Shown one piece after another: positions 13,428-36,910 of a stretch of DNA of 64,000 nt. Position numbers and translations under genes: made by a program. The DNA comes from Prorocentrum cordatum. Its lineage: Eukaryota. The notes beneath the pieces were generated by a model. That model saw only the letters and a list, made by a program, of their open reading frames with translations, was not told the origin of the DNA and made no database searches. Positions within the stretch are counted from its first letter, which is position 1. Each line of letters begins with the position of its first letter. The stretch is from positions 1 to 64,000 of the forward strand of contig CAUYUJ010000320.1 of assembly GCA_963575745.1 (NCBI GenBank), given 5' to 3'.

Positions 13428-13470
13428 CTCGTCGGGCGCGCCGAGCCCCAGGTTGGACAGGTCCAGGAGC
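13428..13470 (-). CDS. Probable LRR exon of the host gene (LLDLSNLGLGAPDE)
   Basis: CAG acceptor; phase matches exon 18835-18894; LxLxxxxLG LRR-like pattern. Confidence 0.5.
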
Positions 13471-13486
13471 CTGGAGGAGGATGTGG

Positions 13487-13592
13487 GATGATGGTGATGA
13501 GGATGAGGATGAGGATGATGATGAGGATGAGCATGAGGATGAGGATGAGGACGAGGATGAGGATGATGATGATGATGCTGCTGCTGCTGATC

Positions 13593-13635
<43 letters not shown>

Positions 13636-13640
13636 GGATG

Positions 13641-13671
<31 letters not shown>

Positions 13672-13672
13672 C

Positions 13673-13723
<51 letters not shown>

Positions 13724-13995
13724 AATGATGATGACGATGATGATGATGCGGAGGAGAAGGCGGAGGAGGAGGAGGACGAGGAGGATTAGAGGGAGGAGGA
13801 GGAGGAGACGGAGGATTGGGAGGAGGAGGAGGAGGCGGAGCAGGGGATGGGAGGAGGAGGACGAGGAGGAGGAGGAGGAGGAGGAGGAGGCGGCGGAGCA
13901 GGAGGGGGAAGAGGAGGAGGAAGAGGAGGAGGAGGAGGAGGAGGGGGAGGAGGAGGGAATAACATCCACAGAAGAGGAGGAGGATAAGGAGGAGG
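13487..13995. repeat. (GAT)n followed by (GAG)n microsatellite
   Basis: Seen directly. Confidence 0.9.
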
Positions 13996-14195
13996 TCTAT
14001 AGATCGCGGGCGTTCTGACGCCGCGGGCGAAATCGGCGCCCTCACAGCTCGGCAAGAAGAGAAGGTCGATGTTTGGCATGGTACGCGCGCTCGACAGGAA
14101 AGGTTCCGCGCCGGTGTGTACACATGAATTTGTTCTACCATGTTGAATTGGTGTGAGGGCCTGTCATAGAACAAGGCGGAGGACGAGGAGGAGGG

Positions 14196-15014
14196 TCCGT
14201 GGCCACTTCGGCTCAAGCCAATTTGGCTCCAGATGTCGCCGTGTATGGGGCCCCGGACCATCACCTCAAGGCAAAGTTCAAGGGGGCCCCCGCCTGGTGC
14301 CACAGCGACATTCACCAGGCCTCCATTGAACGGGTTGTTCTTCCTGCTCTACTGATCACCGACAAGGAGGTGGGAGGAAGGGCAGCGATTGTCACGACGC
14401 CTCCCGCAGAGATTTCCAATTATGATGCGGAAGTGCACCTGAGGGACGAAGAATGCCCAGAAACTGACGCATTGCAGCAAGTGCAAGCAGCGTTGCCAGC
14501 AGGCGGGTGCAGCTCAACCGACAGCGAAGGCCCCTTCGAGGGCACCAAGTGTCGGAGATGGTCGTGGAGCCGCAGTCCGTCGCGAAACCTCCCCGTCAGA
14601 AGCACGCGTGGCACAAAGACGCGAAGGACCTGAAGAACAAGGAGGCAAAAGACGAGGAGCCCCTGGTCATGCCTCAGGAAAGTCGACCGGCATCTGCACG
14701 GATGGCGACTCCATGCGAAGGTCGCCTCTGTCCATTGTATCGGCCCCTCAGTGCGCACGCCACTAAGGAGGATAAACAACGAGTACTACAAGCGTGTGAA
14801 GTCCAAGCACCAGCTTCCCCAGCAGCAGTACAAGCTGCAGTGGCTGATGGACGAGAACTGCGGGGGCACGATCAGGACCATCGGAGTGTGCCGCCGCATG
14901 CTGATTTCGGAGAAGCGCGGGATCGAGCAGATGGCTTGGGTCGAGGCGGCCCTCCGCAGATCCAGGAGCATCATAGACGCATGGGCCCACGAAGGAGAAG
15001 AAGCTAAAAGATAG
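14196..15014 (+). pseudogene. Retrocopy of an unknown gene headed by tandem relict spliced leaders
   Basis: TCCGTGGCCACTTCGGCTCAAG (19/22) immediately followed by CCAATTTGGCTCCAG (13/15 to the 3' part of SL); broken coding-like frames downstream; 3' end uncertain. Confidence 0.6.
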
Positions 15015-15848
15015 CGGATCAACAGCTGTCGCGACATCAATCCGCGAAAGAGCATTCCTCCGCACTGAGGAAGAGCATGGAGGAGCTGAGGGAGGCCGCG
15101 GAGGAAGGGAAGCTCGACGCAGCCATGGCCGTGGATCGCAATGGCTACACGCAGCCGCCACGGCTATGACCATCGCCAGCTTCGGGTTTCGCGGGTTCGT
15201 CTGCTGGGCATTCTCCCGCAGCGCCAGGCACGGCGCCCGTGGGCAGGCGGCCTTCGGCTGGCTCGGCAGCCCAAGGCGAGAGTCCAACTTTGAAATGCAC
15301 TCCCCCGCATCCTTGCAGCTGCTACGAAATGTAAACCGCCTGTGCGCGTCGCTAAGACGAGAACCGCACGTTGCAAACCACCAGCCCTCCATCCTTGAAG
15401 CCGTTGCAGACTTTTGAGACGACTGTGCCCGGCGCTGGGGCGAGAGCCACCTTCTGAAAAGTGCACCACCCCACCCTCCTGACTATCGCAAGCGTTTGAG
15501 ACGGGCATGCGCAGCGCGAAGGCAAGATCCGCATTTAGAAACGGAACCGCCCCCTATCCTTCTAATTAACTGTTTCGGGCGTTGGCAGAACTGGGTTTAG
15601 TGGGACCTGGTTTAGTGACGTGTACTGGGGGGCGCCATCACCCGAAAAAACACAAGCTACGGCAGACCTGGTTTAGTGATTCTGGCCAATGTAGGGGCTC
15701 CGAAGCCCTACCACTAACTGGATCCCCTTACCTGGGGTCCTGGCTATACCCGACTGTTGCGCGGCGCTGCGCCCCACTCGGAGAACGACCGCCCACCTAT
15801 CCTTGCAGCCGTAGCGCAGCGCTCACTCGAGAGCAACATTTTGAAAAT

Positions 15849-18109
15849 TATCCCAGTGCGACCCTACCTAGGAGTTGGACCCCCTAGGAAAGCAGCATTA
15901 GTAGTAACAGTAAAGCTAAGCTAAAGCTAAGCCACAGCTAAGCTAAAGCTAAGCTAACGCTAAGCTAAAGCTAAGCTAACGCTAAGCTAAAGCTAAGCTA
16001 AATATAAGCTAAAGCTAAGCTAAAGCTAAGCTAAAGCTAAGCTAAATCTGAGCAAAAGCTAAGCTAAAGCTAAGCTACAGCTAAGCTAAGTCTAAGCTAA
16101 AGCTGAGCTAAAGCTAAACTAAAGCCAACCTAAAGCTAAGCTAAGGCTAAGCTAAAGGCTAGGCTAAAGGCTAAGCTAAAGGCTAAGCTAAAGGCTAAGC
16201 TAAAGGCTAAGCTAAACGCTAAGCTAAACGCTAAGCTAAAGCTAAGCCACAGCTAAGCTAAAGCTAAGCTAACGCTAAGCTAAAGCAAAGCTAACGCTAA
16301 ACTAAAGCTAAGCTAAGTATAAGCTAAAGCTAAGCTAAAGCTAAGCTAAAGCTAAGCTAAAGCTGAGCAACAGCTAAGCTAAAGCTAAGCTACAGCTAAG
16401 CTAAAGCTAAGCTAAAGCTAAGCTAAAGCTAAGCTAAAGCCAACCTAAAGCTAAGCTAAGGCTAAGCTAAAGGCTAAGCTAAAGGCTAAGCTAAAGGCTA
16501 AGCTAAAGGCTAAGCTAAACGCTAAGCTAAACGCTAAGCTAAAGCTAAGCTAAAGCTAAGCTAAAGCTAAGCTAAAGCTCAAGCTAAAGGTAAGCTAAAT
16601 CTAAACTAAAGCTAAAGCTAAAGCTAACGCTAAAGCTAAAGCTCCCAGGGGACTGGGGGAACCGCTCCCAGGGGACTGGGGGAACCGCCCGGGGCGCTTT
16701 CCACTGCCCGGCCCCTTTAAGCTAGAGAGTAAGAACCCTTCTAGGCAGAGCCTAGGTAGGGAATTATCCCAGTGCGACCCTACCTAGGAGTTGGAGCCCC
16801 TAGGAAAGCAGCATTAGTAGTAACAGTAAAGCTAAGCTAAAACTAAACTAAACCTAAGCTAAACCTAAGCTAAAGTTAAGCTAAAGCTAAGCTAAAGTTA
16901 AGCTAAAGCTAAGCTAAAGCTAAGCTAAAGCTAAGCTAAAGCTAAGCTAAAGCTAAGCTAAAGCTAAGCTAAGCTAAAGCTAAAGCTAACCTAAAGCTAA
17001 TGCTAAGATAAAGCTAAGATAAGCTAAGCCAAGCTAAGCTAAGACGAGATAAGCTGAGCCAAGCTAAGGGGGCGCTATGCTACGCTATGCTACGCTATGC
17101 TAAGCTATGCTATGCAATACTGTGCTATGTTATGCTATGATGTGCTATGCTATGTCATGCTATGCTATGCTACGCTAAGCTAAGCTACATTAGGCTAAGC
17201 TAAGCTAGGCTAAGCTAAGCTAAGCTAAGCTAAGCTAAGCCAAGCTAAGCTAAGCTAAGCCAAGCTAAGCTAAGCCAAGCTAAGCTAAGACGAGATAAGC
17301 TAAGCCAAGCTAAGGGGGCGCGACTGGGGAAACCGCGGGGCGGGGACTGGGGGAACCGCCCGGGGCGCTTTCCACTGCCCGGCCCCGTTAAGCTAGAGAG
17401 TAAGAACCCTTCTAGGCAGAGCCTAGGTAGGGAAAAACACGCCCGTCTGCCCGTGCAGCTGCTGCAAATCTCAAGCCAGGCCTGTCCCTGAGGAGTATTC
17501 AAAAATAGTAAAGTATCCCAGTGCGACCCTACCTAGGAGTTGGAACCCCTAGGAAAGCAGCATTAGTAGTAACAGTAACGCTAAGCTAAAGCTAAGCTAA
17601 AGCTAAGCTAAAGCTAAGCCACAGTTAAGCTAAAGCTAAAGCTAAGCTAAAGCTACGCTAAAGCTAAGCTAAAGCTAAGCTAAAGCTAAGCTAAAGCTAA
17701 GCTAAAGCTGAGCAACAGCTAAGCTAAAGCTAAGCTACAGCTAAGCTAAAGCTAAGCTAAAGCTAAGCTACATCTAAGCTAAAGCTAAGCTAAAGTTAAG
17801 CTAAAGCTAAGCTACAGCTGAGCTAAAGCTAAGCTAAATCTAAGCTAAAGCTAAGCTAAAGCTAAGCTACAGCTAAGCTAAACGCTAAGCGAAAAGCTAA
17901 GCGAAACGCTAAGCTAAAGCTAAGCTACAGCTAAGCTAAAGCTAAGCTAAAGCTAAGCTAAAGCTAAAGCTAAAGCTAAAGCTAAAGCTCCCAGGGGACT
18001 GGGGGGAACCGCGGGGCGGGGACTGGGGGAACCGCCCGGGGCGCTTTACACTGCCCGGCCCCTTTACGCTAAGAGAGTAAGAGCCCTTCTAGGCAGAGCC
18101 TAGGTAGGG
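15849..18109 (+). mobile_element. Three tandem copies of an element with an internal (AAGCT/AAAGCT) satellite and 11-bp (sub)terminal inverted repeats
   Basis: Units start TATCCCAGTGCGACCCTACCTAGG at 15849, 16765 and 17514, and end CCTAGGTAGGG at 16761, 17432 and 18109. Confidence 0.8.
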
Positions 18110-18834
18110 AAAAAATAGCCTGGGGGCTTTCTTTGGACTATTTTCGGGCATCCTGGGAGTATAGTTTGAGTATTCTTATTTTTTCGGCCAAAGCCCCCCT
18201 GTAGGGGGACAGGCCCGGCATGATGCGAATATCAAGCTTCGGGATCATATCTGATGAGGAAGCCTCGGGCGAAACGCCCGGCCCGCCCTGCCAGCACGCC
18301 TGGGGGCCCGAAAGGGAGGAGCTGTTCATACAGCAGGGGCTCGACCACAAGAGCTCCCCCACACAAGAACCCCAACCCTGAGGCCCCAGGACGTCCATCG
18401 ACCTTGGGGCGCGGGAACGGCACACGCCGTCCACAGGAGAACCAGCGAGACCCAGGAGTCCCAGGGCACCCTGGAGGCAAGCAGGGCGCTTCTTGGCATG
18501 GGCCTCCACTGTACGTTGGAGCTCTGGGACGCTGCCGACCCCGCGCAGAGGAGGAAGAGGAGGAGGAGGAGGAGGAGGAGGAGGAGGAGGAGGAGGAGGA
18601 GGAGGAGGAGGAGGAGGAGGAGGAGGGGAGGAGGAGGAGGAGGAGGAGGAGGAGGAGGAGGAGGAGGAGGAGGAGGAGGAGGAGGAGGAGGAGGAGGCCG
18701 AGGAGGAGGAGGAGGAGAAGGAGGAGGGAGGAGGAGGAGGAGGAGGAGGAGGAGGAGGAGGAGGAGGAGGAGGAGGAGGAAAGGGGATAGGGGGGAGAAA
18801 GGGGGAACAGCGAGGGAGCTGAAGGCCCCGGAGC

Positions 18835-20419
18835 CGCAGTCCAGCCGCCCCCGCCAGCAGCCCCCGCAGCGCGGCCGTGCCCAGCGCGCTCAGCCTTAGG
18901 CTGGGCATGTCCTCCTACAGTAGAGGCCTCCTAGATGGGGTCCGAGTAGATGGGGTCCGAGTAGATGAGGCCTCCTAATCAGATGGGGTCCGAGTAGATG
19001 GGGTCGAAGGATCGCGCCACATCGCAAATGCATCACCGATGTATCGGCGATGCATCGGCGATGCATCGCAGACGTCGGCGACGCATCGGCGACGCCGGAG
19101 TGGCGAAAATCGGGCTCCGCATCGAGCCGCATCATCGATACATCGACGATGCAGCGCGATCCTCGGACCCCATCTACTCCGACCCCATCTAGGAGGCCTA
19201 GATACAGGCGGCTTCTGGAACAAAAATGAAAAAGAGCCACAAATATTCAAAAATAGTATCAATAATAGGACAATCGGCCCCAGACTTTTTTAAAACATAT
19301 ATATAGTGTTATATATATACACACATATATGTATGTATGTATGTGTATACATATATATATATATGCATACTGCGACTATTTTTGAAGATTCCTCCTGTAG
19401 AGGGCCACGCCCGACTTACGAGCTCAGCCTCGGCTGGCAGTCGAAGTCCCACTCGGCCCGCCGGGCGGACAGCGCCCGCCCGAGGTGCCCGCGCCCCAGC
19501 ACGAAGGCGTTGCGGTAGAACGCGTCGTTCAGGCGCCCGCTGAGCCCCTCGGCGCCGCCCCAGAAGGCGGCCGCCCCCTGCGCTGGCCCGCCCTCGGCGA
19601 GGCCTCGCCCGCAGAGCTCCCGCACGAAGAGGCACTCCTGCCGGAGCGGGCGATCGGGGGCGGCGTCCGTGCCCAGGGCGCTGTCGCGCCCCAGGAGGAG
19701 GAGGAGGAGGAGGAGGAGGAGGAGGAGGAGGAGGAGGAGGCCCCCCGGAACAGGACGAGTCCAGGATGAGGGGCCCGCGCCTCGCTCTGCAATCGCCCAG
19801 GCTGCGAAGCGCCACTCGCTTTCGCGCCCTCGCAGTGGCCCTGCAGGGCCCGGTGCAGGGAGCGCTGGCGAGTCGGCTCGCGCGGCCGCCTCTCCCGGCG
19901 CCTCCCGGCGCCAGGAGGTGCCCCTGTGTATCGAAGAGTAGCGCCCCGGGGGCGGGGCCGAAACCGGCTGCCTGCAGCAGACTTCGCACCCTCCCCCCCC
20001 CCTTCCCTGTCCCTGCCCCCTTTCGACTGGCCCCATCCTGGAAACTCAGGTGGCGGAACTGGAACTCGCCGGTGTCGCCTCGTGACCCTGGGCAAGAGGG
20101 ACCTTCGGCTGCACGGTTTGCCCCAGGGCCGTAGGCGACCCGAGGAGGAGGAGGAGGAGGAGGAGGAAGAAGAGGAGGAGGAGGAGGAGGAGGAGGAGGT
20201 GGAGGAGGGGGGGGGACAAGCTAGGTGCGCTCGCGTCATGTCTGACGTCCTACCCGTCTCTCCCATCCCTTACCATGGCGCTGATTTTCTCTATCCGCGG
20301 ACGCGTGTCGTAGCGGACCTGTGGCTCCGCGCGCGCGTGCGTAGTGGGTGGTGGTGCGCGTGCGTGCGTGCGTGCGTGCGTGCGTGTGTGCGTGGTTGTG
20401 GTGGTGGTGGTGGTGGTGG

Positions 20420-20450
<31 letters not shown>

Positions 20451-22729
20451 GCTACTGCTGGTGCTGGTGCTGGTGGCGGTGGTGGTGGTGGTGGTGGTGG
20501 TGGTGGTGGTGGTGGGTGGTGTGTGTGTGTGTGCGCGTGTACTGTGGCATGGCACGGGAAATGACGCCAGCGCTGCAGCGGGAGCACGAGTCGAAACGGG
20601 CGGAAGCGCGGAAATGAGGCCAGCGCTGCAGCGGGAGCACGAGTCGGAACGAGCGGAAGCACGGAAATGAGGCCAGCGCTGCAGCGGGAGCACGATTCGG
20701 AACGAGCGGGGCCCGAAAATGAGGCCAGCGCTGCAGCGAGAGCAGCATTTTGAAACAAATGCAGGCGAAAACCCAACTCCCGGGAATCCTGTGTGTAAAA
20801 AAGCAGGACGCGGGGGGGGGTCGGCTACTCCCAGCACGCCATCAGGGGAAGAGGGAGAGTAGTATTCATATTGAGTAATTGTAGAGGAGGAGGAGGAGGA
20901 GGAGGAGGAGGAGGAGGAGGAAGAGGAGGAGGAGGAGGAGGAGGAGGAGGAGGAAGAGGAGGAGAAGGAGGAGGAGGAGGAGGAGAGGAGGAGCAGGAGG
21001 AGGAGGAGGACGTGTCGCCCAAGCCCTTCGGAGAACACCCCCATCTTCGGCGCGTGGCAGGCCAATCGCTGCGCCCGGTTCGACAGAATAGCAGCCTGCG
21101 TGCGTGGGGTGCGGCCCCCGCGCGCCCGCCGAACGCCCCGCACCGCGAGTCCACTCCGCCAAAGGGTCACGCCTACACCCATGCGTGGAGCTAGGAGGAC
21201 TTCAGGTCACGGCAGGTTCGTGCGGCGTCGGCGCGCGCAAAAGTTTCTGACACCGCGTCGATCGTTCCACCTTGAATCGATCGCGGCCCCGATCGTTCGA
21301 AATTGAATTCAACCGGGTCCGATGACGCTACCGTGAACATCGGTGCTTCCGCGCCGCAGCATTCGACCTTGAACGCCTTCGCCAGCGTCGCCAGCGGGCC
21401 AACGTCGCATGAACCTACTGTCAGAGCATGGACTTCACTCGAAGCGTTTTCTTGAACAGTGGTCCGGGTCCAGATGTACCACCAAAGACCCAGCGGCAGA
21501 CAGGCTCAGAGGAAAAGCGCCCAGGCTCCGGCTGGCCCAGCCTCTTGGGCTTTCTGCCATACGGCATCTGGAGTCCACGGGAGTTGCTGCTCGTTCTGCT
21601 GAGGTCTCTGCTGGGTGCCCGCGCAGCCGATCGCCCAGCGTCAGGATCTTGACCACGGGCACCTCCCCGCGGTCCACCAGCTCGGACCAGAGGCCCTGCA
21701 GGTCGGGCCGGTCCGCGAGCGCACGGCGCACGTCGCCCGGCTGGAACGTGCGCCGCTTCGCCAGGTGGTTCGCGGCCGCGATGGCCTGCAGCATCTCCAG
21801 GCAGGGCCCCGCGCGCTGCTCCTCTCGGGCTCTCGAGGGGCAGGGTCCGTCTTAGCAGGGGCAGATGAGCAGCCTGCGAGAAAACCAGGCCAGAACCATC
21901 CTTCCGAGCACCCGTCCCCAGGATACACAAGAGGGTACAACAAGTACGAAAAACACTGGGGTACCCTCCCCGAACTGACCTCGACCTTGACAAACAGAAG
22001 AACACGAAACGGCACAAACATGAACTGTTGGCGCTCCGCGCGGGTTTCTTGGATCCGCGCTGGCCCCCCTCCCTGGCGCGCGGAGCGCGTCAGGAGCGGC
22101 GCCGAAGGCGCTGCCCAGGGGGGCTCCAGCGCCGATCCAAGAGATCCGCGCATACCTTCAAGAATTTCTGTTGATGGTACACGCGAGGACATACTACGGG
22201 GCAGTTCTTATTACATGGGATTTTAAATGTAGGATTTCAAATGCATGATTAATGTATGAGTAAATGTATGCATGAACTCATCGTTGTTTTTAATACTAGA
22301 TCCCTGCATGTCTAATACATGATCCGCACGCGGAGCATGTATTAAAAACGGCCCTGTACTAACTTGATGTGTCGTCCTCCTCGGAGGCGTGCGCCCGAAG
22401 CGAACAGATAGAACAACCATGTATATATCGTTTCCCGCGCGGCGTGGCCCAAAAGCGCCGGCCACGACGCACATGCTATAGGATTTCTCGGTGCGCGCGT
22501 CGCCCATTGGGGGGGGGGGGGCGACGCACAGATAGTACGAGTATGTTGGGGCGACGCCGATCCAAGAGATCATGTCAACGCCATTCTTGGTTCTCCGATC
22601 CTCGCCCCCAGCGAAGTGCCGCCGCAGCGCGGCGCGCACGCCCAGATCGTACAGCTCGAACGCGTCGCGCGGCAGCTCGCCGGTGCCCGCGCCCAGCACG
22701 CACACGAGCACGGAGAGGAGGACGGGAAC
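18835..22729 (-). CDS. Host gene exons after the NACHT core (helical domain, winged helix, start of LRR): 22601-22729, 21635-21821, 20038-20078, 19429-19637, 18835-18894
   Basis: VPVLLSVL..ELP..FELY and GEFQFRHLSFQ|ECL (FxHxSFQE NACHT-associated motif split across an intron); junctions are phase-compatible. Confidence 0.7.
18897..19418. mobile_element. TIR element making up nearly a whole intron (introner-like)
   Basis: TIRs TAGGCTGGGCATGTCCTCCTACAG / CTGTAGAGGGCCACGCCCGACTTA; flanking 12-bp direct repeat CG(C/A)GCTCAGCCT; related copy at 26715-26872. Confidence 0.65.
18921..19202. mobile_element. MITE (TAGAGGCCTCCTAGATGGGGTC...GACCCCATCTAGGAGGCCTAGA) with 5-bp TSD TACAG
   Basis: Long TIRs, internal CATCGGCGATG repeats, TACAG at 18916-18920 and 19203-19207. 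Confidence 0.85.
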
Positions 22730-23189
22730 CTCGACGGGGAGGGGCAGGAGGGGCAGGAGGAGGAGGAGGAGAAGGGGGAGGAGGAAGAGGAGGAGGAGCA
22801 GGAGGAGGAGGAGGAGGAGGAACAGGAGGAGTAGAGGGAGGAAGAGGAGAAGGAGAAGAAGGAGGGCCAGTGTAAACTCAAGAATCACAAACGATGCTGG
22901 AATAGTTAAATCCTCCCTCCAAGCTCCCTCTTCATAGGCCCCTACAACGGTTCTATTCCACTGAGGGAACTGCCTCGATGGAAGAAAACTTTTTAAAGAC
23001 CCTGACGCATGCCAAAACATTGTTCTCGGGATTTCAGCGCCGCGGATCAACCTGACTGTTGCGTCTTGACGATCCTGAATGGTGCCAAAACGCCATTCCT
23101 GGGACTTCAACACCGCGAATCAACGTAACTATTGCACCCTCGTGCCCCGGAGTCCTTCCAACACACAAGTTCTGGTACGTTGACCATGG

Positions 23190-23660
23190 GATTCCGTGAA
23201 ACTCTTGCAACATAAAAACGAATGTGCGTCGCGCTACAATGAGAACCACATTTTGAAAAGGAACCGCCTTCCATCCGTGTACGCGGCGCTCAGGCGAGAG
23301 CCACATTTAGAAAATCACTTGCCCTCAACCCGTGAAACTCTTGCAAATGTTTAAACGAATGGACGCGGCGCTAAGGCGAGAGCCACTTTTGAAAACGACC
23401 CGCCCTCAACCCGTTAAACTCCTGCAATGTTTTACAACGAATGCGCGCTGCACTAAGGCGAGAACCACATTGTGAAAACGACCCGCCCTCAACCCGTGAA
23501 GCTCTTGCAAATGTTCAAAACGAATGTACAAGGCGCATTTTGAAAACCACCCGCCCACAACCCGTGAAACTCTTGCACATGTTCACACGAATGGACGCGG
23601 CGCTAAGGCGAGAGCAACATTTTGATAACGGCCCGCCCTCCATCTGTGAAACGGTTGTCA
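23190..23660. repeat. ~80-bp tandem minisatellite; related units at ~6550-6680 (-) and ~15270-15550
   Basis: Repeated gcggcgctaaggcgagagccacattttgaaaacgacccgccctcaacccgtgaaactcttgcaa. Confidence 0.7.
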
Positions 23661-23844: not shown

Positions 23845-25281
23845 CTCGACGACCTCGCCGAAGACCTGCAAGCGGGCCTCGAGCGCGGCGTCGAAGTCGG
23901 CCTCGCAGTCGCTTAGCTTCAGCAGGGGGCGGAGCAGATCCTTCTGGCCCTCGAGGAGGGCCTTCGCCTCCTCGCACCCGGACATGGCGCGCTGGCGCAG
24001 TCCGCTGCAGGCAAGGATGCGCTCGAAGAGCTCATTACCCTGCAGCTGCTTGCGCGCTATCTGGTGCTGCTCGTCTCCGCTGAGAGGCTGCAGGTGCATT
24101 ATCACAAAGTCGCGGGCGTACAAGCGCTTGCGGACGCCCTCCGGCCGCGACGTGAGGACCAGAGGCATGCCCATCGGCACCAGCGTCTTGGTCACGAACT
24201 CCTCGACCGCCTGCTTCAGGTTCGCGGCCTCGTCCACGCCGTCCAGCATCACGACCAGAGCGCGCATATCGAACGCCTGCGTCAACATGGCCCGCGTGGG
24301 AGCGTCCGTGAACTCGCGCCGGATGTAGAACAGCACCAGGTCCGCTCCGCCGGGCTCTGGCTCCGGCGACGTGGCGGCCTGGCGATCCCGCAGCATGCGG
24401 GCGAGCTTCTGGATCGGGATCAGCAGTGGCACCAGGCGCACGGGGTCCTCGCAGGGCTGCGCCCTGGGCGCACTCAGCTCCTGCGCCAGCAGGAACTGCA
24501 GCTGCTGCATCGACCAGCTCTTGCCTGTGCCAGGCCCTGCGCAGACCAGCACTGGCTGGCGGCAGTGAGCACCCTGCGGCCGCCTCGCGTTCGGCCTAGT
24601 CAGCAGGGGCACGAGGCCGGACACGTCGCGCACGGCGGCGAACGACGCGTCCTGGACCCCAGCGATGGGCCGCGCCTTCTTCAGCAGGTTGGCCGCCAGC
24701 GGCGGCGTCGACGATCCGTCGGCCAACTTCACAATGCAGCGGCCGCTTCTCTCCCGGTGCTCCACGAAGCCCTCGCTGCCCAATGCCCATACGCGGTCCT
24801 GGACGGAAATGTCGGTTCCGGCGACCCACTCCAGGTCGTCAAAAGACATGTGCGCGATGGCCCCTGCATCCCTCGCTGCGCTGTCGTGTGTCTCCATGGT
24901 GAGCCTCACGAGCTGCTCCGTGACGCTCAAGCGATTGCTGGTGATGGCGTCCTCGATGAAGCGGCCATCTTCCACCAGCTGCCTGCAGTACGCCGCGCGT
25001 GCAGCCTCGAAGCTCTCCGCGCTTCCACAGCGCTGCGGGCAATGGTTCATCTCGTTCAAGTCCAGCTCGACCTCCGCTGCGTCGCCGCTCAGCCGCACGC
25101 GGTGGAGGCTGCCCGACCCTGCCGCCGGCCCGCCCGTCACCCTCGCGTCGAGCAGCCTGCCCCCGTGGACCACGAGGAGGTCCTGCCCCTCCTCGTACGC
25201 AAAAGCGCTCGCCTGCACCACGGTGCCGGGCGTGGGATCCACCATCCTCTGCTTGGAGGTGTTGTCGACCCGGACCATGAC
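23845..25281 (-). CDS. Host gene exon: NACHT/STAND P-loop NTPase
   Basis: Walker A AGPGTGKS, Walker B VVMLDGVDE, sensor-1 LTSRP; CAG acceptor at 25282; 479 codons. Confidence 0.85.
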
Positions 25282-25667
25282 CTGTCGGGTGTTGTCAGAA
25301 GTGCCCCTGGCCCAAGGGCTGCCCCAAGCTTCTCGCTCCATTCTGGAGCCCCTATGGGGCCCCCTGGGCCTCGTGAGGGGTGCCCTGGATGCCGTCTGGA
25401 CCACCCAGGGCTGAACCTGAACGGTGTTTTTAGATTTCGTTTTGTGTTCGTTTTCCCTCGTTTTGTCTTCAATCCGCCTCTACCGCAAAACGATGACGAA
25501 ACGAAAACGGCCCACAAAATCGCCAAAAACACTGTTTATGTCCAGTCCTGGGCCACCCCGAGAATCCTGGGGGTACCCTTTGGGTCAAGGGCACTTCTAG
25601 CACCACCCGATGACCTGGCCGCTCTGCAGGAGCCGCACCACCGTGGCGCAGCAGCCGTGCCGATTTC

Positions 25668-28600
25668 GACTACACGCAAGAGTGACCCTGGGTAAGAGTG
25701 ACCTTTGGTGCGCGGCCTTGTGGGGGCCGCGGGGGGGGGACCAAACACGAGCGCGCCAGACGCTACCACCGCATCACGCTCGGCGATCGGAGGGCCCAAT
25801 TGGGCCCGCACCCAAGGTCATGACTACCTACCAGACCACCCCAACCCAACCCGAAGACCCGAATTTCGGGTTGGGGGGGGTATGGGCTCCATATGTGTTT
25901 TTTCGATGATCCCGGACCCCCCCCCCACACTGGAAGTGGACGGCAACTTGAGGCCTTCGGGTTGGGTTGGGGTGGCTTGGTGGGTGGTGAGGTCACTCCG
26001 GCGGAAGGGCCACTCTTGCGTGTAGCCGACGCTTCGCCTCCTCGCACAGCGCCAGGCGCAGCCCCGGCTCGGAGGCCGCGTAGGCCAGCACCGTGGGCCG
26101 CACGCGCAGCCGCAGCACGGAGGCGGGCGCCTCGCACCCGCCGCCGCCCTGCGGAGCACCGCCTCGGGCCCGCCCCCTGCTGTGGGCGCCCGTGCCCTCC
26201 GGGGGAGGCCGTGCCCTCCGGGGAGGCCTCGGCCCCAGCGGCCGACGCCGCCTCCGTCGGAGCGGTTCGCGGCAGCCGCCCCCGCGCGGAGGGTTCCAGA
26301 GGAGGGGGAGGAGGGGGGGGGGTTCAGGGGAGGGGGTTTGGGGTCCCCCAGGGGCTTCGAGCCCTCCGTTTTGACGAGGTTCCGAGGGCCCTGGGGGGCT
26401 CTCTGGAAAACCCTCCCCAAACAACCCCCATCTGGAACCCTCCGGCCCACGCCTCGAGGGGGCTGGGCTGGTGGCGCCGTGACCCGCTGGGGAGTGGGGG
26501 TAGGCCCGGACGATGCTGACCTGCGCAGGGCTCCGCCGCAGGGGGATCTGCACGTTGCAGTCGCCGTCCGCGCCGAGGATGCCGGTGCTGTCCTGCCAGC
26601 ACTCGTTGCTCCAGAACAGGCGGGCTCCGAACCCGTCCGCCAGCGGACGCGCCGACGCCGCGGCGTCCGCAGTGTAAAGCTCCCCCACCTCCTGGTGAGG
26701 GGCAACGGCAGGGTTAGGTCGGGCATGTCCTCCTACAGGCGGACTTTGGAAGAAAAATACAAACGAAAAACAGGCAATAGCTACCATTGGTCAGAAGAGC
26801 ACGAACGTCACCAGACTGACTGTGTTTTACTATTCTTGGAAACTCCTCCTGCCAAAGGACATGCCCGACGTAAGGGTGGGGGCCGGACTGGCAAACGGAG
26901 GGGGGAGACACCGACCTGGATCGACCGACCTGGAGGAGGAGGAGGAGGAGGAGGAGGAGGAGGAGGAGGAGGAGGAGGAGGAGGAGGAGGAGGAGGAGGA
27001 GGAGGACCGGGGGGGAGACATCGATCTGGACTCGGCGAAACAGCGCCGATGCATCGGCGAAGTAGGCCCCGAGAGCGAACACGCACGGTCGGGGGCGGAG
27101 CGGGGCCATCCAGCCCCCCGGCGGCGCGGCCTCCATGGGCGAGTGGGGGTCGCGATACGATCCCCCCGAGCCTGTCGGGAGGCCACATGCGAACCCTACA
27201 GGGCAGTTTTTAGTACATGGGATTTAAGCACACATAGGATCTTTAATACATGATTCATGTATGAATAAATGTATGCGTGAACTCATCATTGTTTTCAATA
27301 CGAACCCCTGCATGTTTAATACATGATCCGCACGCGGAGCATGTATAAAAAAGGGCACTGTACCCCCCCCCCCGTAGAAATCGTAGGGTGGTGGGGTAGG
27401 GTTCGCATGTGGCCTCCTACCTGTCCCACCCCCCCCCCCAAGAGATCCGACGCTCTAGAAAAACATTGGAGCGCGGGCGGCTTGGGGCCGTCTTCGGCCT
27501 TCAGGGGGGGGCCCTCGCCAAGTCTCGGGGCCGTCAGCGAAAAACACCTCAGGCTCAAAAAACCGCTGGGAAGTGGCCCAGACCTCTGGGGCCCACGGAT
27601 TCGAAAAACTTGGAGCAGCCGGATGTCTGGGCCCAACCGAGGCAAACGGTCATCGTGCTGGGAGCAGGGGGTGGGGAGGCATGAACTGCATGAACAATAG
27701 CCCCGCGGCTGCAATGCACGATGCCTGCGGCCGCCTGCGCGTCATGGCATCCTCATCCCTCCCGGCCCCAGCCTCCCAGCCCGATGGCTGTGCTCCTGAC
27801 CAACGTTGCCCCCGACTGAAGGGGCCACAGGGCACACAAATAAATACACACAAACAAACAGATCCCCCATATTTTACAATATTTTCGGGGTTTTGGTCTT
27901 CCCCCCCACTTCCCATATTTTCCCACATTTCCTGGGGAATCGAGAATGAATCGTGTCTGTGTGATTCTCTTCCTCCTGACCGACTCCTGCACCGCGCCGC
28001 CCACGGAGCACAGCAGCGGCCCGGTGGCGTTCCGGGACACGTCCGCCAGGACCCCCTTGACGCTGAAGACGTAGCAGTCCGCCCACCGGAAGAGGAGGCG
28101 CAGGTCCTGGTGGCGGCCCAGCCCCGTGCGGCACTCGCGCAGGCCCTCGTCCGACCTATAGGAGAAGCACAAGCGGCATGCACAGGAACGCTCGGCGCTC
28201 CGCGCGGGTCTTTCTCGGATCTGCGCTGGACCCTCCTCCCCTTGCGCGCGGAGCGCGCCGGGCGCGGCGCCAGAGGCGCCGCCGGGGGGGGCCCAGTGCG
28301 GATCCAAGAAATCAGCGCGGAGCGCCACAAGTTTATGTTTATGGCGTTTTTCCTCCGTCGACGACCGCTGCTCCAGGAGCGCGGACGGGAGCGAGTTCTC
28401 GAAGGACCAGCGGCGCCACGTGCGGTTGATGGACTCTTGTTCGCCCGCGAGCTCCTGCGCGAGCAGAATGGCCTCCTCCTCCGCGGGCTTCTCGTGCCAG
28501 CCGTGGGCAACGAGGATGTGGCTGGCCCGCACCGTCGTCGACAGGATGCCGCGGTTCTTCTGCCGCGCCAGGAGCAGGTGCCAGCCCGCGGCGGTCTCCA

Positions 28601-29210
28601 CCGGGCCCAGGACCTTGCCGAGCTCCAGCTCCTCGGGGGGGGCCCAGAGGAGCGGGCCCACGGCGGAGGGAAGAGGTGGACTGAGCATGGCCAAGACGTC
28701 GCGGGGTCTTGTCGGTGCAGATCTTGGTCATGGCCCATGCTGGCCGTTCGGCTACACGCAAGATTGAACCTGGACAAGAGTGACCTTTGGTGCGCGGCTT
28801 CTTGTGGGGCCGCGGGGGGACCGACCACGACTGCGGAAGACGCTACTGCCGCATCCCGTGCGGCGATCGGGGGACCCCAGTGGGCCCGCACCCAAGGTCA
28901 CCCTGGCGAAGGGTCACTCTTACGTGTAGTTGAGCCGTCGCCGGCCCGCGAGGATGATCCACGAATTGATGCTGGCCAAGACGGACAGTGACCAAGCGCG
29001 GCACCACGTCTCTGCATTCGGTCTTGGTCATGGTCTTCATCTCTTCCCTGACTACCTACCAGACCACCCCAACCCAACCCGAAGACCCGAATTTCGGGTT
29101 GGGGGTAAGGATTCCACACGTGTTTTTTCGATGTTTCCCGACCCCCCCCAACTGGAAATCGAGGGTAAATCTGAGCCTTCGGGTTGGGTTGGGGTGGTTT
29201 GGTGGGTGGT
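25668..29210. repeat. Two TIR families, each present twice: CTACACGCAAGAGTGACC... (25668-26026, 28750-28930) and ACCACCCCAACCCAACCCGAAG... (25823-25990, 29050-29210)
   Basis: Inverted termini and near-identical pairs seen directly; the second family is nested in the first at 25.8 kb. Confidence 0.7.
26040..28155 (-). CDS. Host gene linker exons of unknown function (27987-28155, 26521-26691, ~26040-26149)
   Basis: Coding-like composition, AG acceptors, phase-compatible joins. Confidence 0.5.
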
Positions 29211-29582
29211 GATTCCCCTCCAAGAAGCTTCCGCTATCGCGGACCTCGTGGGTCGACGCTGGACCCCCTGGCCCCGCGCCCCTTCTGTGGCGGGTGCGGG
29301 GAGGGGGGGGCCAGCGCCGACCCCAGAAATCCGCGGCTGTGCTTCGTGCGCCATCGTGCGGCGGGCAACCCGATCCTTGTCGAACAGGGCGGCCTCGATG
29401 GCTGGGTGCATCTGGCCCCTCTCCACGTCGCCGAGGTCGCCGCCGACGTCCCTGGTGCCGAGGCAGGCGGAGTACGCGCGCGCGGCCGCGTCGAAGTCGT
29501 CGGGAAACGCCAGGCAGGGCGCGAGGGCGCGGCAGAAGGCCTCGGCGTCGAGCATCCCGGGCGCCCAAGCGCGCTCGCGCTC
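28366..29582 (-). CDS. Host gene exons 29376-29582 and 28366-28631: parvulin/PpiC-type peptidyl-prolyl isomerase domain
   Basis: YSAC....GGDLGDVERGQMHPAIEAALF|..LGKVLGPVETAAGWHLL, then VRASHILV. Confidence 0.75.
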
Positions 29583-30682
29583 CTGTGAGCACGCTTTTTT
29601 CTGGTTCGCGCAGCATCCACTGGCGCTACGTGATCGTCACCGTTGCGGGAGGCGGCCAAGCCAGGAATGCCGCACGCGATGTCATCGGCAGCGAAATGCC
29701 CCAGGAAGGGAGGGGAGGGCAGTAGAGGGGATAAGGGCGTTGTGCGGAGACCCCCACGCGGCACTGAGGGAACAGGGTCCTGAGGGAAACGGGTACTGAA
29801 CCCCAGGCTTTCCCCCAAAATAGCTTGTCCCCTAGAGTAGTCTTGCTGACGGTCCTGGGGACCAGGAAGAGCCTGTGGGAGGCCGAAGGCAGCGAACAAA
29901 ACTCAGGACACCTTTCACTCAGGACATATTTTCCTCATGCTGTCTCTGAGTAAGACAATTATCGTATTGGGAGGACGGGGTTTGGAGAATACAGGGTATG
30001 AGCAAATGCACCCGGATGCAATGAACGACACCTTCGCCCGCCTACGTCTAGCGAAAGGGAAATGTGTTGTTACCGCAGCGCATGTGCCGCCAATCCAACA
30101 CCGCGCAAGCTTCCTAAGAAGCGGGTTGCAACCAGCAGCCTACTTCGTGGCCCTCTCGGCGCCCTGCGAACTTCCCAAGACGCAGGTTGCATCCTGCAGC
30201 CTGCTTCGTGGCCCTCGCAGGGCCCACTTGGAGCCCCGCCGAGGCCTTCGGTGGGGCCGTCCAAGAGCCCTCTTGTGTGTGTTCTGGGCCCTCTCAAAGC
30301 CATCTTGGACCATCTCATGTGTTGAAGCGACGCGGCGAACACTGGAGGTGGACCAAGGGCATGAACAATGATGGGCGTTTCTGGTAATTGCCCTGTGAAT
30401 AATGCTTCTTGTATCAGGTTGCGCATTGCGATTCGTTGCGGATGCGATGAGTGGGAACGTCGTTTCCAGCGATATGAACGCGAAGAACCAACCCAAGTTC
30501 AAGCAGAAGTACCAGCGCAATCGGCAGGCAACTCAAGCTGCAGCGGAGTTGGAGGATGCGACGGCCCATGCCCGTGCACATGCCAGTCTAAGAAATACCT
30601 TCAACAAACGCGACACCACATATGATATGATCAATTCTCCCAACCCCAGCCTCCCAACCCGATCATTGTCTTTCTGAATCTC

Positions 30683-31675
30683 CTGGCCGCCCTCGTCGCA
30701 CATGCCGGGCGGCGCCGACGCTGGCGCCAGAGCGGACTGCTGCAAGCCCCAGAGGTCCTCTAGCTGCGCCAAGCCAGGCGGCTCTCCACCGCAGAAGGCT
30801 GCTGTGAAGTATGCCGTCCTGCCCTTGTTGCACATCAGGTCGCCTGGAGCGAAGAAATTATCCCAGAGGAGGCAGAAGTCGCCGCTGCACATGTCCTGGC
30901 TCCGGAGCCACGCGAGGAGCCCCTTGTACCTTGCTGCGGCACTGTCGGAGAGGGAGCATACCTGGTCCACTGCTTCCTTCGTGCACGACATAATATCTGG
31001 CATGCACCTGCAGAATGTGCAGTCAGGTTCCAGCTTGGGCAATGCAGCTTGCAAGGTGTCCGAGGCCTCCTCCAGCTCGGCCCGCAAGCTGGAGACCAAC
31101 CTTGCGACGTCCTCCAGGGTAACATTCACTCTTTTATTCAGCACCTCCGTCCCAGCAGCATCCTTTGTGATACTGCGGCGCACGTTCAAGAAGCACGGCC
31201 ACAGCTCGTGAACTAGCTGCTGGGCCTTATCCCGAGCACCGTGAAAGAACACGTCGAGAACAAAGTGTCGCAGGTCCCTGCCCTCTGAGTCCTTGATACC
31301 CTCCAGCATCGCTAGGGCCTGCAGATCGAAGCCATCTGCCTGCCCGCGGCCCGTGCCTCCGTTCAGGTGGTTGCCCACCGCGAGGACGATCCCCAAGAGA
31401 GTGCTCAGCGCTTCTGCGCTGTGGAAGCAGTCGATAATGTCGAGAAAACTCTCGAGGGCCCGCGCGCACTCCGCGGCCCGCTCTCGACAGCTGCGAGCAG
31501 CGCTCCAGCAGGAGATCTGCTCGCGACACAGGGGCAGCGCACCCAGGGCGCCGCAGAAGTCGCGCAGCTGCGCCGGCGCATGCGGGCACGCCGCCCCGGC
31601 GCCGCTCGGGCCCCTGCACAGGTGCTCGCGCACGTCCGCGAGCTCCTGGGTGCTCAGGGCCCCCTCGTCCAGGTC
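30683..31675 (-). CDS. Host gene exon: formin FH2 domain, C-terminal part
   Basis: LLGIVLAVGNHLNGGTGRGQADGFDLQALAMLEGIKD matches the FH2 GNxxN..RG.A.GF motif; TAG acceptor, GA donor, phase 0. Confidence 0.85.
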
Positions 31676-32256
31676 CTAAGGGGGGACGCCCACAGGCCAC
31701 GGCGCCGGGCCCGGCCAGGCTCGTGCGAGGGCCCGGGGTCGGTGCCGCTGCCTCCTCGGCCAGGGCCTGAGGGCGTATATAGGCATGGGCCTCGGGCCGA
31801 AGACTGGAAGAAGAGCACACTGCAGAAGCACAAGCCATAAACTTTTGGAGGTCCGCGCGGATTTTTCTTGGATCTGCGCTGGACCCCCCTCCCCTTGCGC
31901 GCGGAGCGCGCCAGGCGCGGCGCTGGAGGCGCCGACGGGGGGAGGGCCCGCGCGGATCCCAGAGATCCGCGCGGACCGCCACAAGTTTATGTTTTGTGGC
32001 GTGTTTCCGTCTTCGGCCCTCGTCGACCAAGTCCTGAGGGCGTAGGCACCGACCTTGGGCCAAGCATGGGCCCGGGCCAGGATGAGTGGCGAGGTCTTGC
32101 TTGTGCGGGTCCCAAGAGTATACACCACCACCACCTCTACTCCTCTTCCCTCCTCGTCCCTCCTCTTCATCTCCTCCATCGTGGGAGAGGGAGGGGGCGA
32201 AGGAGGTGGTGGTGGTGTGTAGTGTTTCCCCCCCGTAACTTGACACCCCCGGAGTC

Positions 32257-34500
32257 CGCTACGGCCCGCACCACCTCCGACGCGGGAGGCAGCCTCCCGA
32301 TGGCCACGACGGCCTGCCGGTCCTCAGGAAGGAACTCACGGAAGCTTTTGGTCGTCCCCACGGCAGGCAGGAAGGAAGCTTTTGGTCGTCCCCACGGCAG
32401 GCACGGCAGGCAGGCAGGAAGGAAGGAACTCACGGAAGCTTTTGGTCGTCCCTCACGGAAGCTCAGGAAGGAACTCACGGAAGCTTTTGGGCGCCCAATC
32501 CCGCGCGGATCAGGCATAATAAGAGGAAGCGCCATGAAGATGAACTTTTGGCGCTCAGCGCGGAGTTCTTGGATCTGCGCTGGACCCCCCTCCCCTGGCG
32601 CGCGGAGCGCGCCAGGGGTGGCGCCGGAGGCCGCCGGGGGGGGGGGGCAGCGCGGATCCAAGAAATCCGCGCGGAGCGCCAAAAGTTTATGTTTATGGCG
32701 ATTTTGCTTCTTCGAATAAGGCGTTTCTCTCACACGGCGCTGCTACTGGGCGCTATTGGGTATCATTGAACACTATTCCCGCACGAGCGGGAACTTCCGT
32801 GGCATGAATAAAAAACGAGTCCCGAGGGTAGCAGGCACTGGGGCCCGGGGTCTCCACTGGGCCCGCATCAAAGGTCCCTCCGGCGAAAGGTCACCCTTCA
32901 CCTCTACGGGTCTTGAGAACCCCGCCCAAATACGGTGTAATTGATTCTATCTTCGGCGGCCTTATTCGCGGAACTGAATATTCGTTGTTGCTGGCGGCAC
33001 CCGCCGCCCAACAGCGGCGCCGACAGCTACGACCACGACTGCGACTACGCCTATGAGATCCCAGACATCCGACGTCTCGATTTTTTCGAGACACGGGCCC
33101 CCGACCTCCTCCCGACCACTTCCCCAGGACCCGATGTTCATCCCGAGTCGCTTCTTGACGGTCCAGAAGCCGGGCGAGGGCCCCGAGAGGGCGAAAACGA
33201 CGAACCATGGCCGACTCGATTTTGTCCGAGACGCCCGACGTCTGGGATTGCGACTACGACGACTCGAGACAGGTCCCCCGAGGAGGCAACTTTGGGTGAC
33301 CCAAAAGGGGGTCCAGCTGAAAAGAGGGTGGTGCAATAGATTTGGCGCATTTGTACTGCAAATGCATTGCGCCGGAAAATTGTATTGCCTTGTATTGCAA
33401 GTGTGATGCATTGCACGCGAAGGTCCAGCAGTACACATTTTGCGCCCTGGAATGCGCTGCACGACCCTAAGTGCATGGCAAGCCCCACACATCTCTTGCA
33501 CCAGATCTCTCGCACCACCCCCCTGTCGCCGGACCCCGTTTTGGGCCAAACCCGAGCAACGCAGCCGTTTAGCAGGGACCGACCGTCCCGGTACTCCTAT
33601 AGCCCTACCAGGAAATGCTCTTAGAACCCAACAAAGTTCTAAGAGCAAAAGCAATGCTCTTTGAACATAAGCCCGATGTTTTAAAGCCAAGCCGTCCCAG
33701 CCAGAAATGTTCTAAGAACATTTCGTGGAAGGCAGGCCCATGGGCACGCCAGGACGCTTCGCCGCTGCCTGAAGCCGGTCCTCCTCGGAGGTCTGCCTCC
33801 GCAGCTCTGGCACGGCGGCGAAGGAACAACAGCAAGAAGAAGGAAAAGAAGAACAGGAACAACAGCAACACCAACACAACACCCCCCTGTCGCTGGACCC
33901 CCTTCTGGGCCAACCCGAGCCGCGCAACACGGTTAAAACAGGGCTAGGATCGGGATAAATCGCTCCAGAGCGTTCCGGAGCGCTCTCAGAGCGTTCTGGA
34001 ACGCCCTGGAGCGGTCGCGGCGCCCAATACATCCTCCAAACCCGCCGATTCTCAGACTGGGTAGTCGAAGCCAATCTGGCGCCAATCTGGCAGGCCCAAT
34101 CTCGCAAACGGGGGCAATCTGGCGAGGGAGCCAACGCGAATCCAGTCTGGCGAATAACCCAAATCATCCAGTGTGGCCAGGCCAGATTGGCCCTTGGGGC
34201 CCAATCCAATCTGACAGTCTGGCCTTCGACTACCCAGTCAGAGATTTCGAGTTATCCCGATCCGATGTTGTCCCGATCTTCGCGTCGTTCTATGGACCCC
34301 CTTCTGGGCCAACCCGAGCCGCGCAGCACGCTCCTCCTCGGAGGTCTGCCTCCGCAGCCCCGGCACGGCGGCGGGCACCTCCTCCCCGGGGCGCCGCGAC
34401 CGGAACCGGCGCAGGCGGCCCTCCAGCTCGCCGGCCGGCAGCCGCGCGCGGCAGTCCGGCACCGCGTCCCACACGGTGGGGCCCAGGGCGCCCTCGGCGG
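32257..34500 (-). CDS. Probable upstream FH2 exons (~32257-32360; ~34400-34500)
   Basis: EFLPEDRQAVVAIGRLP and GPTVWDAV..LPAGELE resemble the FH2 N-terminal (lasso/knob) motifs; boundaries approximate. Confidence 0.45.

Positions 34501-36824: not shown

Positions 36825-36910
<86 letters not shown>

Follow-up and report, generated by a model that had tools for sequence, protein, structure and literature searches.

Introduction

Formin homology 2 (FH2) domains form dimers that nucleate actin and cap barbed ends. NACHT-LRR proteins, in which a NACHT domain precedes leucine-rich repeats (LRRs), act as switches gated by nucleotide, and activation makes them oligomerise and bring their N-terminal effectors together. 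Each of these systems is well understood alone, and to our knowledge no described protein joins a formin to a STAND (signal transduction ATPases that have numerous domains) switch resembling the NOD-like receptors (NLRs). We likewise know of no immune-type pathway described for dinoflagellates. Here we analyse a gene on the minus strand of a 64,000-nucleotide stretch of the dinoflagellate Prorocentrum cordatum (positions 1 to 64,000 of contig CAUYUJ010000320.1, assembly GCA_963575745.1; hereafter the window) that encodes an FH2 domain, a parvulin-type peptidyl-prolyl isomerase and a NACHT module in one chain.

The encoded protein resembles formins such as mDia1, DAAM1, FMNL3, INF2, Bni1p and the apicomplexan Formin 1 in having an FH2 domain that scores above the Pfam cut-off and is modelled with the FH2 fold. 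In contrast to these formins, no FH1, GTPase-binding domain (GBD), DID or DAD was found in the window protein, and its FH2 domain is followed instead by a parvulin and a NACHT-LRR portion. With animal NLRs (NOD2, NLRC4 and NLRP3) it shares the NACHT–helical domain 1 (HD1)–winged-helix domain (WHD) fold, the Walker A and B motifs and a TSRP motif, and its relatives also have C-terminal LRRs. It differs from animal NLRs in that the effector portion consists of FH2, a parvulin and ~450 beta-rich residues and not of a CARD, PYD or BIR death-fold module, in that the NACHT half of the window protein is only 10–16% identical in sequence, and in that the LRR tail was not recovered in the window. With the parvulins Pin1, Par10 and SurA it has in common a Rotamase match above the cut-off, and a Cys and two His residues that are invariant in its family are putative counterparts of the parvulin active-site residues, whereas in the window protein the 'HILV' first strand comes after, not before, the rest of the domain.

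Results

Gene structure and transcription

All positions given below refer to the window, in which the DNA is GC-rich. On the minus strand, from 34517 to 13428, 16 exons join into one open frame. Exons 1–14 amount to 4205 nucleotides (nt) and 1401 codons without a stop, compared to 8 and 35 stops in the other two frames, and the full model of exons 0–16, which includes one exon that is predicted only, has 17 exons, 4374 nt and 1458 codons, again with no stop and with an open 3′ end. The order along the protein is an apparently complete FH2 domain, a parvulin-type isomerase, a beta-rich region, two small beta modules, a NACHT domain accompanied by winged-helix and helical domains, and finally the beginning of an LRR region. 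A first-pass annotation made from the DNA letters had described about 15 minus-strand exons joined in compatible phases without an internal stop. The multi-exon gene and its open joins hold, and the junction peptides that it listed recur exactly (GGQ|ERE at 30683|29582, FDK|ELE at 29376|28631, FQ|ECL at 20038|19637 and LR|LLDL at 18835|13470), but the count comes to 16 exons within the interval that it covered, plus the predicted exon 0.

Four RNA runs (X1, X2, X7 and X17) were mapped on positions 15000–34999, with exons 0 and 16 lying outside this stretch. X2 is a polyA RNA-Seq run, X1 and X2 come from different studies, and X17 consists of raw reads covering about 12% of the run. A single 4503-nt contig of X1 carries, with every intron gone, the FH2 exons, the two parvulin exons, four small exons, and the NACHT exon with those that follow it, and a single 3763-nt contig of X2 is spliced through the FH2, parvulin, small, NACHT and following exons. 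X7 exhibited the same joints on shorter contigs, while X17 provided one read at each of five joints, including 29579/30680 between FH2 and parvulin and 25276/25610 between a microexon and the NACHT exon. First mates of X17 over the exons lay almost solely on the plus strand, indicating minus-strand RNA, given the usual stranded library.

The first-pass annotation had named an outcome that would separate the two halves, namely an FH2 exon that ends at its in-frame stop at 30533 and a NACHT portion with its own spliced-leader start. The contigs splice out the intron (30682→29583) that holds this stop codon, and the bin 29674–30340 inside it had zero depth in all four runs. The share of sampled words from 23800–31700 that was present in the RNA runs was 0.33–0.41, which is about the exon share, and no run contained more than half of them. 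None among the 24 listed loose ends (of 392) resembles a spliced leader that could mark an internal start for NACHT, and the window contains no leader motif on the minus strand, its matches lying on the plus strand only. At the other end, the X1 contig has ~202 nt beyond exon 16, as calculated from its piece coordinates; these nucleotides lie beyond the mapped stretch and are unplaced, and the mRNA thus continues past exon 16. Position 13428, which had been taken as the end of the gene, is a splice donor.

Splice sites were located by shifting each RNA joint within its positional ambiguity. Donors were G|GA (7), G|GC (6) or G|GT (4) and acceptors were AG|G in 15 of the 16 introns, which we take to be the dinoflagellate pattern. 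When a 10-nt direct repeat at the ends of the intron that follows the NACHT exon is allowed for, this intron conforms to the normal GT-AG type. In intron 8 (26032→25664), no AG acceptor is available at any position that the joint allows (GC..AA, AG..AA or AA..GA), and the removal of this intron is carried by RNA contigs of X1 and X2. The adjoining region had been annotated as one intron with a junction at ~26040/25281; it in fact contains two introns flanking a 49-nt microexon, exon 9 (25615–25663, minus strand), which bridges to the NACHT exon through the joint 25276/25610 (X1, X2, X7 and the one X17 read) and to exon 8 through the joint 25663/26033 (X1 and X2 only).

Two public protein models cover this gene, both named 'unnamed protein product [Prorocentrum cordatum]' and having adjacent accessions on one 115,388-nt contig. 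P0171 (752 aa, FH2 and PpiC) is 100% identical to the FH2 exon, and P0025 (701 aa, partial, NACHT) is 100% identical to the NACHT exon. The RNA-based model equals residues 26–739 of P0171 exactly, after which P0171 reads through the exon 8 donor and stops. P0025, for its part, is the same as the model over its whole length of 701 residues, which start at the NACHT exon and finish with the last codon of exon 16. The public annotation splits one gene into two adjacent models at intron 8.

The same two models could be read as two neighbouring genes, one encoding FH2 and PpiC (752 aa) and one a partial NACHT protein (701 aa), in which case the bridging contigs would be chimeric or would represent unprocessed polycistronic RNA. 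The adjacent accessions, separated exactly at the exon 8 boundary, and the lack of an AG acceptor in the intron after exon 8 would be in keeping with such an arrangement, and a contig spanning two genes does not by itself show a single transcript. However, the bridge is spliced and in frame through the 49-nt microexon in contigs from two different studies, X17 has a read at the microexon-to-NACHT joint, and P0171 ends only through read-through of an unrecognised donor. Moreover, exons 6–9 are homologous to a continuous inter-domain region within single open reading frames (ORFs) of ~2200 aa in other genera, and no stop occurs over the 1458 codons. We consider two separate genes highly improbable. 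There is very little doubt that the locus is one dinoflagellate protein-coding gene, with a minus-strand transcript of at least 16 exons and with FH2, parvulin and NACHT in one chain. The fusion that the first-pass annotation proposed is thus borne out by a single spliced in-frame RNA and by the same domain order in the ORFs of full-length relatives.

The FH2 domain

The main FH2 exon, exon 3 (30683–31675, minus strand as are all exons), has 331 codons and is covered by RNA contig pieces at 30680–31672. In the ORF 30533–31675, the Pfam FH2 profile (PF02181) was matched with an E-value of 7.1e-19 and 68.6 bits against a cut-off of 34.8, over profile positions 149–367 of 372 from exon 3 alone; the FH2 domains of relatives reach up to 208.9 bits. 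A GNxxNxG...GF stretch, which we take to be the conserved formin motif, is visible in this exon. Exon 2 (32257–32322) adds 22 FH2 codons, is flanked by GA-AG introns on both sides and is placed by the RNA joints 31672/32254 and 32320/34332. The latter joint, present in X1, X2, X7 and one read of X17, leads to exon 1 (34334–34517, AG|G acceptor at 34518), which encodes the N-terminal lasso/linker part of FH2 and gives a weak profile match to the FH2 N-terminus (E 0.008). Exons 1–3 are colinear with profile positions 70–464 of the relatives' FH2. Since exon 1 opens mid-codon behind an AG acceptor, at least one exon lies upstream, and the predicted 47-nt exon 0 of P0171 (36454–36500; start codon plus 15 codons, G|GC donor) fits as this upstream exon, on annotation only.

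An AlphaFold2 model of P0171, built from 15 aligned sequences, had an overall predicted local distance difference test score (pLDDT) of 66.8, with values of 80–94 in the FH2 knob-to-post core. Foldseek searches with this model returned the FH2 domains of mDia1, FMNL3, INF2, DAAM1 and Bni1p (best E 5.9e-9; 28 hits at E ≤ 1e-3), and the nearest solved sequence was a 5051-aa 'Formin 1' (9ya0, E 3.3e-5).

Relatives of the window protein (P0001, P0005, P0007, P0008, P0010 and P0180–P0182) carry two FH2 domains per chain, and the first (FH2a) and second (FH2b) copies fall into separate clades. The window FH2 groups with FH2b of P0001 and P0010 in a tree of FH2 segments (support 0.993), and the FH2a copies stand apart from these, together with single-FH2 formins. 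We know of no described formin with two FH2 domains in one chain; such a tandem could represent an intramolecular formin dimer. When the whole window was searched for an upstream FH2a or FH1 by relaxed tblastn and three profile searches, only low-complexity matches were obtained. Querying shorter proteins with FH2a of P0001 gave one match, and none from Prorocentrum cordatum. The minus-strand ORFs at 36300–38000 were considered as upstream coding sequence and set aside as microsatellite-like. The leads that precede FH2 in relatives are short and Gly/Lys/Pro-rich, with a run of four prolines in one of six examined.

The parvulin and beta-rich regions

Exon 4 (29376–29582) encodes the first part of the parvulin and is joined to the FH2 exon by the RNA joint 29579/30680 in X1, X2 and X7 as well as by the single X17 read. 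Pfam Rotamase (PF00639) was matched in the frame 29052–29636 with an E-value of 3.4e-5 and 25.2 bits against a cut-off of 21.7, and relatives scored 30–45 bits. Within the protein family, conservation is highest in the parvulin segment. Residues C470, H489, H517 and H537 are invariant in 15 sequences and presumably correspond to the catalytic positions, going by the Par10 and Pin1 motifs and by an alignment with SurA. Exon 5 (28366–28631), which is bounded by RNA joints and is 61–66% identical to relatives, continues with the C-terminal strands of the parvulin and then a conserved 'SHILV' strand.

The order of the strands departs from the canonical one. The Pfam Rotamase matches span only profile positions 22/33–96, and within residues 441–545 of P0171 the 'SHILV' strand lies after the C-terminal His strand (residues 531–540 after 515–526 in the model). 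Exon 5 aligns best where parvulin domains 1 and 2 of SurA meet (E 0.0011), and weakly with Pin1. This strand order and the alignment to the SurA junction suggest that the parvulin is circularly permuted or is the remnant of a tandem pair.

A beta-rich region of ~140 residues without an assignable family follows the parvulin. Exon 6 (27987–28155, profile E 2.5e-15) encodes a linker or part of this beta-rich domain, to which exon 7 (26521–26691, profile E 2.6e-14) belongs; both exons are bounded by RNA joints. Exon 8 (26033–26148, profile E 1.8e-9) is placed by the joints 26147/26520 and 25663/26033. A PIH1 N-terminal domain (ESM Atlas score of 0.87, below the bar of 0.9) and a C2 domain (Foldseek probability of 0.1–0.3) were considered for the beta-rich region and are not claimed. 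For the beta modules that precede NACHT, ESM Atlas gave no match.

The NACHT module and the leucine-rich repeats

Exon 10 (23845–25281, RNA piece 23848–25276) encodes two beta-rich pre-NACHT modules, the NACHT domain and HD1, with a profile E-value of 2.4e-204. Pfam NACHT was matched in the ORF 23677–25479 (E 1.4e-5, 25.4 bits against a cut-off of 26.7), and two relatives score above the NACHT cut-off (P0010, 29.7 bits; P0026, 31.4 bits). The exon contains GPGTGKS, LDGVDEA and TSRP, of which we take the first to be Walker A, the second to be Walker B (DGxDE) and the third to be the TSRP motif. Residues G250, G252, K253, D346, G347, D349, E350, R378 and P379 are invariant in 42 sequences. Exon 11 (22601–22729, RNA piece 22599–22732) encodes a helical region after NACHT and is identical to P0025. 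The winged-helix region lies in exon 12 (21635–21821, RNA piece 21631–21819, profile E 5.8e-24) and is followed by the 41-nt exon 13 (20038–20078, RNA joints 19635/20036 and 20074/21631) and by exon 14 (19429–19637, RNA piece 19422–19635, profile E 1.3e-20), which encodes helical domain 2 (HD2).

The AlphaFold2 model of P0025, built from 42 sequences, had a pLDDT of 87 and a predicted template modelling score (pTM) of 0.82. It consists of two small beta modules, a P-loop domain, helical domains with a winged helix, and the first beta-alpha LRR units, and it has the NBD-HD1-WHD-HD2 fold of solved NLRs, where NBD denotes the nucleotide-binding domain. Foldseek matched it to NOD2 (5irm, E 3.9e-8) and NLRC4 (4kxf, E 7.6e-8), both with a probability of 1.0, and to NLRP3/7/14, with 83 hits at E ≤ 1e-3. 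The NLR-like character that the first-pass annotation had assigned is therefore seen in the models, in which the NACHT half folds like NOD2 and NLRC4 and the N-terminal half like a formin FH2.

The LRR region begins in exon 15 (18835–18894), which is placed by its exact match to P0025 (profile E 0.016), the listed RNA joints running from exon 1 to exon 14. Exon 16 (13428–13470) encodes an LRR-like 'LLDLSNL' unit that forms the last 15 residues of P0025, and it lacks a stop codon, terminating at a G|GC donor. These two exons, with about 34 residues in total, hold the first LRR-like units. The LRR that had been proposed as part of the fusion is thus present at its start, but the remainder was not found in the window. 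In relatives, LRR_4 was matched in P0004 with 30.3 bits (cut-off 27) and more weakly in P0009, P0010 and P0001. Two candidate matches were examined downstream and rejected: one at 4235–4131, the best candidate for a further LRR exon (E 2.2, or 8.6 in another search), is unsupported, and a match to P0010 at 9598–9455 (E 1.9) lies inside a retroelement. This retroelement resembles a long interspersed nuclear element (LINE) and lies on the plus strand at 6963–13170, antisense to the gene and immediately past exon 16, in the place expected for LRR exons.

These surroundings raise the possibility that the family architecture is real but the window copy is decaying, having lost its first FH2 and most of its LRR region through rearrangement and the LINE-like insertion and being transcribed without its ancestral function. 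Consistent with decay, no FH2a was found in the window up to position 64000 although its FH2 groups with FH2b, ~130 C-terminal residues were not found below 13428, where the retroelement occupies the other strand, and the public NACHT model is flagged partial. On the other side, 1458 codons are open with putative catalytic and nucleotide-binding motifs intact, expression and correct splicing are seen in four runs, and the X1 contig continues past exon 16 with its ~202 unplaced nt. Dinoflagellate introns are long, and the missing exons may lie outside the window or past the retroelement. Decay of this copy seems distinctly unlikely to us.

Relatives in dinoflagellates and other protists

Searching longer proteins with the NACHT frame gave 23 hits, the ten best of which were 46–61% identical. 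In a Pfam scan of these ten, five had FH2, Rotamase and NACHT together (P0003, P0005, P0007, P0008 and P0010; 1861–2223 aa), and P0001, a 2281-aa ORF from a Trinity transcript that is 55% identical to the NACHT exon, had FH2 and Rotamase. The remaining four were shorter models with either Rotamase and NACHT or NACHT and LRR. Full-length relatives of ~2150–2280 aa share one order of two FH2 domains, parvulin, NACHT and LRR. Named members come from Durusdinium trenchii (2162 aa) and Cladocopium sp. (2244 aa), and the Symbiodinium models are partial. Several of the long relatives are intron-free transcripts, since their contigs barely exceed the ORF (for example, 2191 aa on 7021 nt). The relatives map colinearly to the minus strand of the window, where a profile of five of them matched 12 segments in strict order (profile positions 604–2065, E 2.4e-204 to 0.026). 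The same domain order in full-length relatives indicates that the fusion is conserved and is not a mis-join. Other dinoflagellates, in which the first-pass annotation had suggested looking for FH2 with NACHT, thus have the same architecture.

In a wider comparison, the NACHT exon gave 929 hits among cluster representatives at E ≤ 1e-3. A domain scan covered 40 of the 146 newly returned representatives, namely the first batch of proteins of at least 600 aa, with a second batch of 38 and the shorter ones left out. FH2 or Rotamase was found in none of the 40 representatives scanned, which carry EF-hands, F5/8-type-C, kinase-like APH or RNI-type LRRs, or nothing known. The nearest of the wider groups is a protist and algal NACHT-LRR clade (including Prymnesium parvum P0014, the CAP-Gly protein P0023 and the EF-hand proteins P0013 and P0030), whose NACHT domains are 30–40% identical to that of the window (E 1e-36 to 1e-61) and many of whose members likewise have LRR ends, of the RNI type. 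It differs in that FH2 with parvulin was seen, among all proteins scanned, only in the close dinoflagellate relatives. Judged by these sequence comparisons, the FH2-parvulin front is putatively peculiar to dinoflagellates and sits on a NACHT-LRR chassis that is widespread among protists and takes exchangeable N-terminal modules. The varied N-terminal modules of the protist NACHT clade fit a logic of a switch plus an exchangeable effector. P0023 (from JGI, 1356 aa), a distant NACHT relative, has two N-terminal CAP-Gly domains, which bind microtubules, and provides another instance in which this NACHT chassis bears a cytoskeletal module.

Repeats and relics within and around the gene

The LINE-like element has plus-strand frames with Pfam matches to Exo_endo_phos (8087–9835), RVT_1 (9839–11584) and zf-RVT (11359–13170). 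An exact 16-nt spliced-leader relic at its 5′ end (6963–6978) suggests that it was retroposed from a trans-spliced transcript. Two tandem spliced-leader-like relics with 2 mismatches each are located on the plus strand at 14202–14232, within the 5.4-kb intron separating exon 15 from exon 16, and further leader-like matches are present at 56799 (1 mismatch) and at 39213 and 47760 (3 mismatches each). The window contains 6 leader matches compared to 0.6 expected, all on the plus strand.

A repeat of ~150 nt is shared by 34520–34700 and 27800–27990 (minus strand) and adjoins splice sites in two introns: in the one preceding exon 1 it lies at the 3′ end, and in the one following exon 6 at the 5′ end. 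One of its frames reads like '...MGSGGED.NPEN...', and the repeat may be an introner-like element. Long triplet microsatellites of the GAG/GAT/CCT type fill introns at 13200–14050, 18540–18800, 19690–19750 and 20300–21100 and produce long but spurious open frames in each of the six reading frames. In the intronic stretches 32342–33008, 21670–22336 and 25672–26338, the summed depth of contigs was very high in the RNA runs (up to 430 in X1), and loose ends were numerous, as were cross-joints (for example, 22083→28273 and 32625→22554). These stretches look like dispersed expressed repeats and not parts of this mRNA.

Discussion

The sequences described here are not new, but the FH2-parvulin-NACHT architecture appears to have gone unrecognised. 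Public databases already contain full-length members, labelled generically, for example as 'Peptidylprolyl isomerase'. In the titles and abstract openings of the open full-text literature, with subscription-only work outside this body of text, no FH2-NACHT fusion and no dinoflagellate NACHT protein was described, and entries that mention NACHT or NLR with Symbiodinium concern, in these portions, animal hosts or fungi only. Proteome-based domain surveys under-count the architecture, because the gene is split in the public annotation and several Symbiodinium models are truncated.

Taken as a whole, a fused gene that encodes a signal-gated formin is the best explanation of these data, and we regard it as probable, if not strongly so. 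The gating mechanism itself, in which a STAND switch would control a formin, is proposed tentatively and by analogy. At rest, the NACHT-LRR half would keep the protein monomeric and closed, like ADP-bound NOD2 and NLRC4. A signal or ligand at the LRR end would then lead to nucleotide exchange and NACHT oligomerisation, which would cluster or free the FH2 domains, allowing FH2 dimers to nucleate actin at the site of the signal. In such a scheme, the NACHT-LRR portion would stand in for the GTPase-binding/DID-DAD autoinhibition of Diaphanous-type formins, and FH2 would occupy the position that a death-fold or enzymatic effector has in other NLR-like proteins. Beside FH2, the parvulin is probably a proline-directed binding or isomerase module.

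Several points weigh against this explanation. The 5′ end of the gene rests on the predicted exon 0, outside the RNA-mapped stretch, and with this predicted 5′ end the annotated N-terminus extends only 15 residues before FH2, without an FH1 polyproline stretch. The window gene has one FH2 domain compared to two in relatives, and the lasso/linker region of this domain (residues 1–74) is poorly modelled (pLDDT < 50). The NACHT match in the window scores 25.4–25.8 bits, just under the Pfam cut-off of 26.7. Profile searches of positions 1–13427 did not recover the ~130 LRR residues seen in relatives, and the window copy may lack its sensor end. Minor or alternative NACHT-only trans-spliced isoforms may also occur, since contigs drop rare forms. 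Finally, the function in actin assembly is predicted, and the trigger may be a pathogen or an internal signal.

The nature of this trigger separates two more specific proposals. The protein could be a dinoflagellate NLR-type receptor with a cytoskeletal output, whose NACHT oligomers would cluster FH2 and seed actin at the site of detection and whose relatives would contain, in FH2a-FH2b, a single-chain 'dimer'; in this specific form we find the proposal rather doubtful. Alternatively, the protein could be a housekeeping organiser of the cytoskeleton in which NACHT acts as a nucleotide-timed actin scaffold, for example in division, in remodelling of the cortex or theca or in feeding, and not as a sensor of non-self. 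Identities of 41–57% across free-living (Prorocentrum) and symbiotic (Symbiodinium, Cladocopium and Durusdinium) genera, with one main architecture, resemble the conservation of a single-function gene more than that of a fast-diversifying immune receptor family, and the gene is expressed in all four runs. By contrast, the structural kin of the NACHT half are autoinhibited immune NLRs with LRR ends, and the wider NACHT clade shuffles its N-terminal modules in a manner typical of sensor families. A housekeeping role is, in our view, unlikely, though one to be taken seriously.

If the proposal of an NLR-type receptor with a cytoskeletal output is correct, FH2 would constitute a new class of effector for STAND proteins, and control by NACHT a new mode of regulation for formins, with a possible use against viruses or parasites or in contact between host and symbiont. 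A conserved fusion would allow one recombinant protein to be used to test whether NACHT oligomerisation gates actin nucleation, and it would provide a first molecular handle on intracellular sensing in dinoflagellates, a group that includes coral symbionts and bloom formers.

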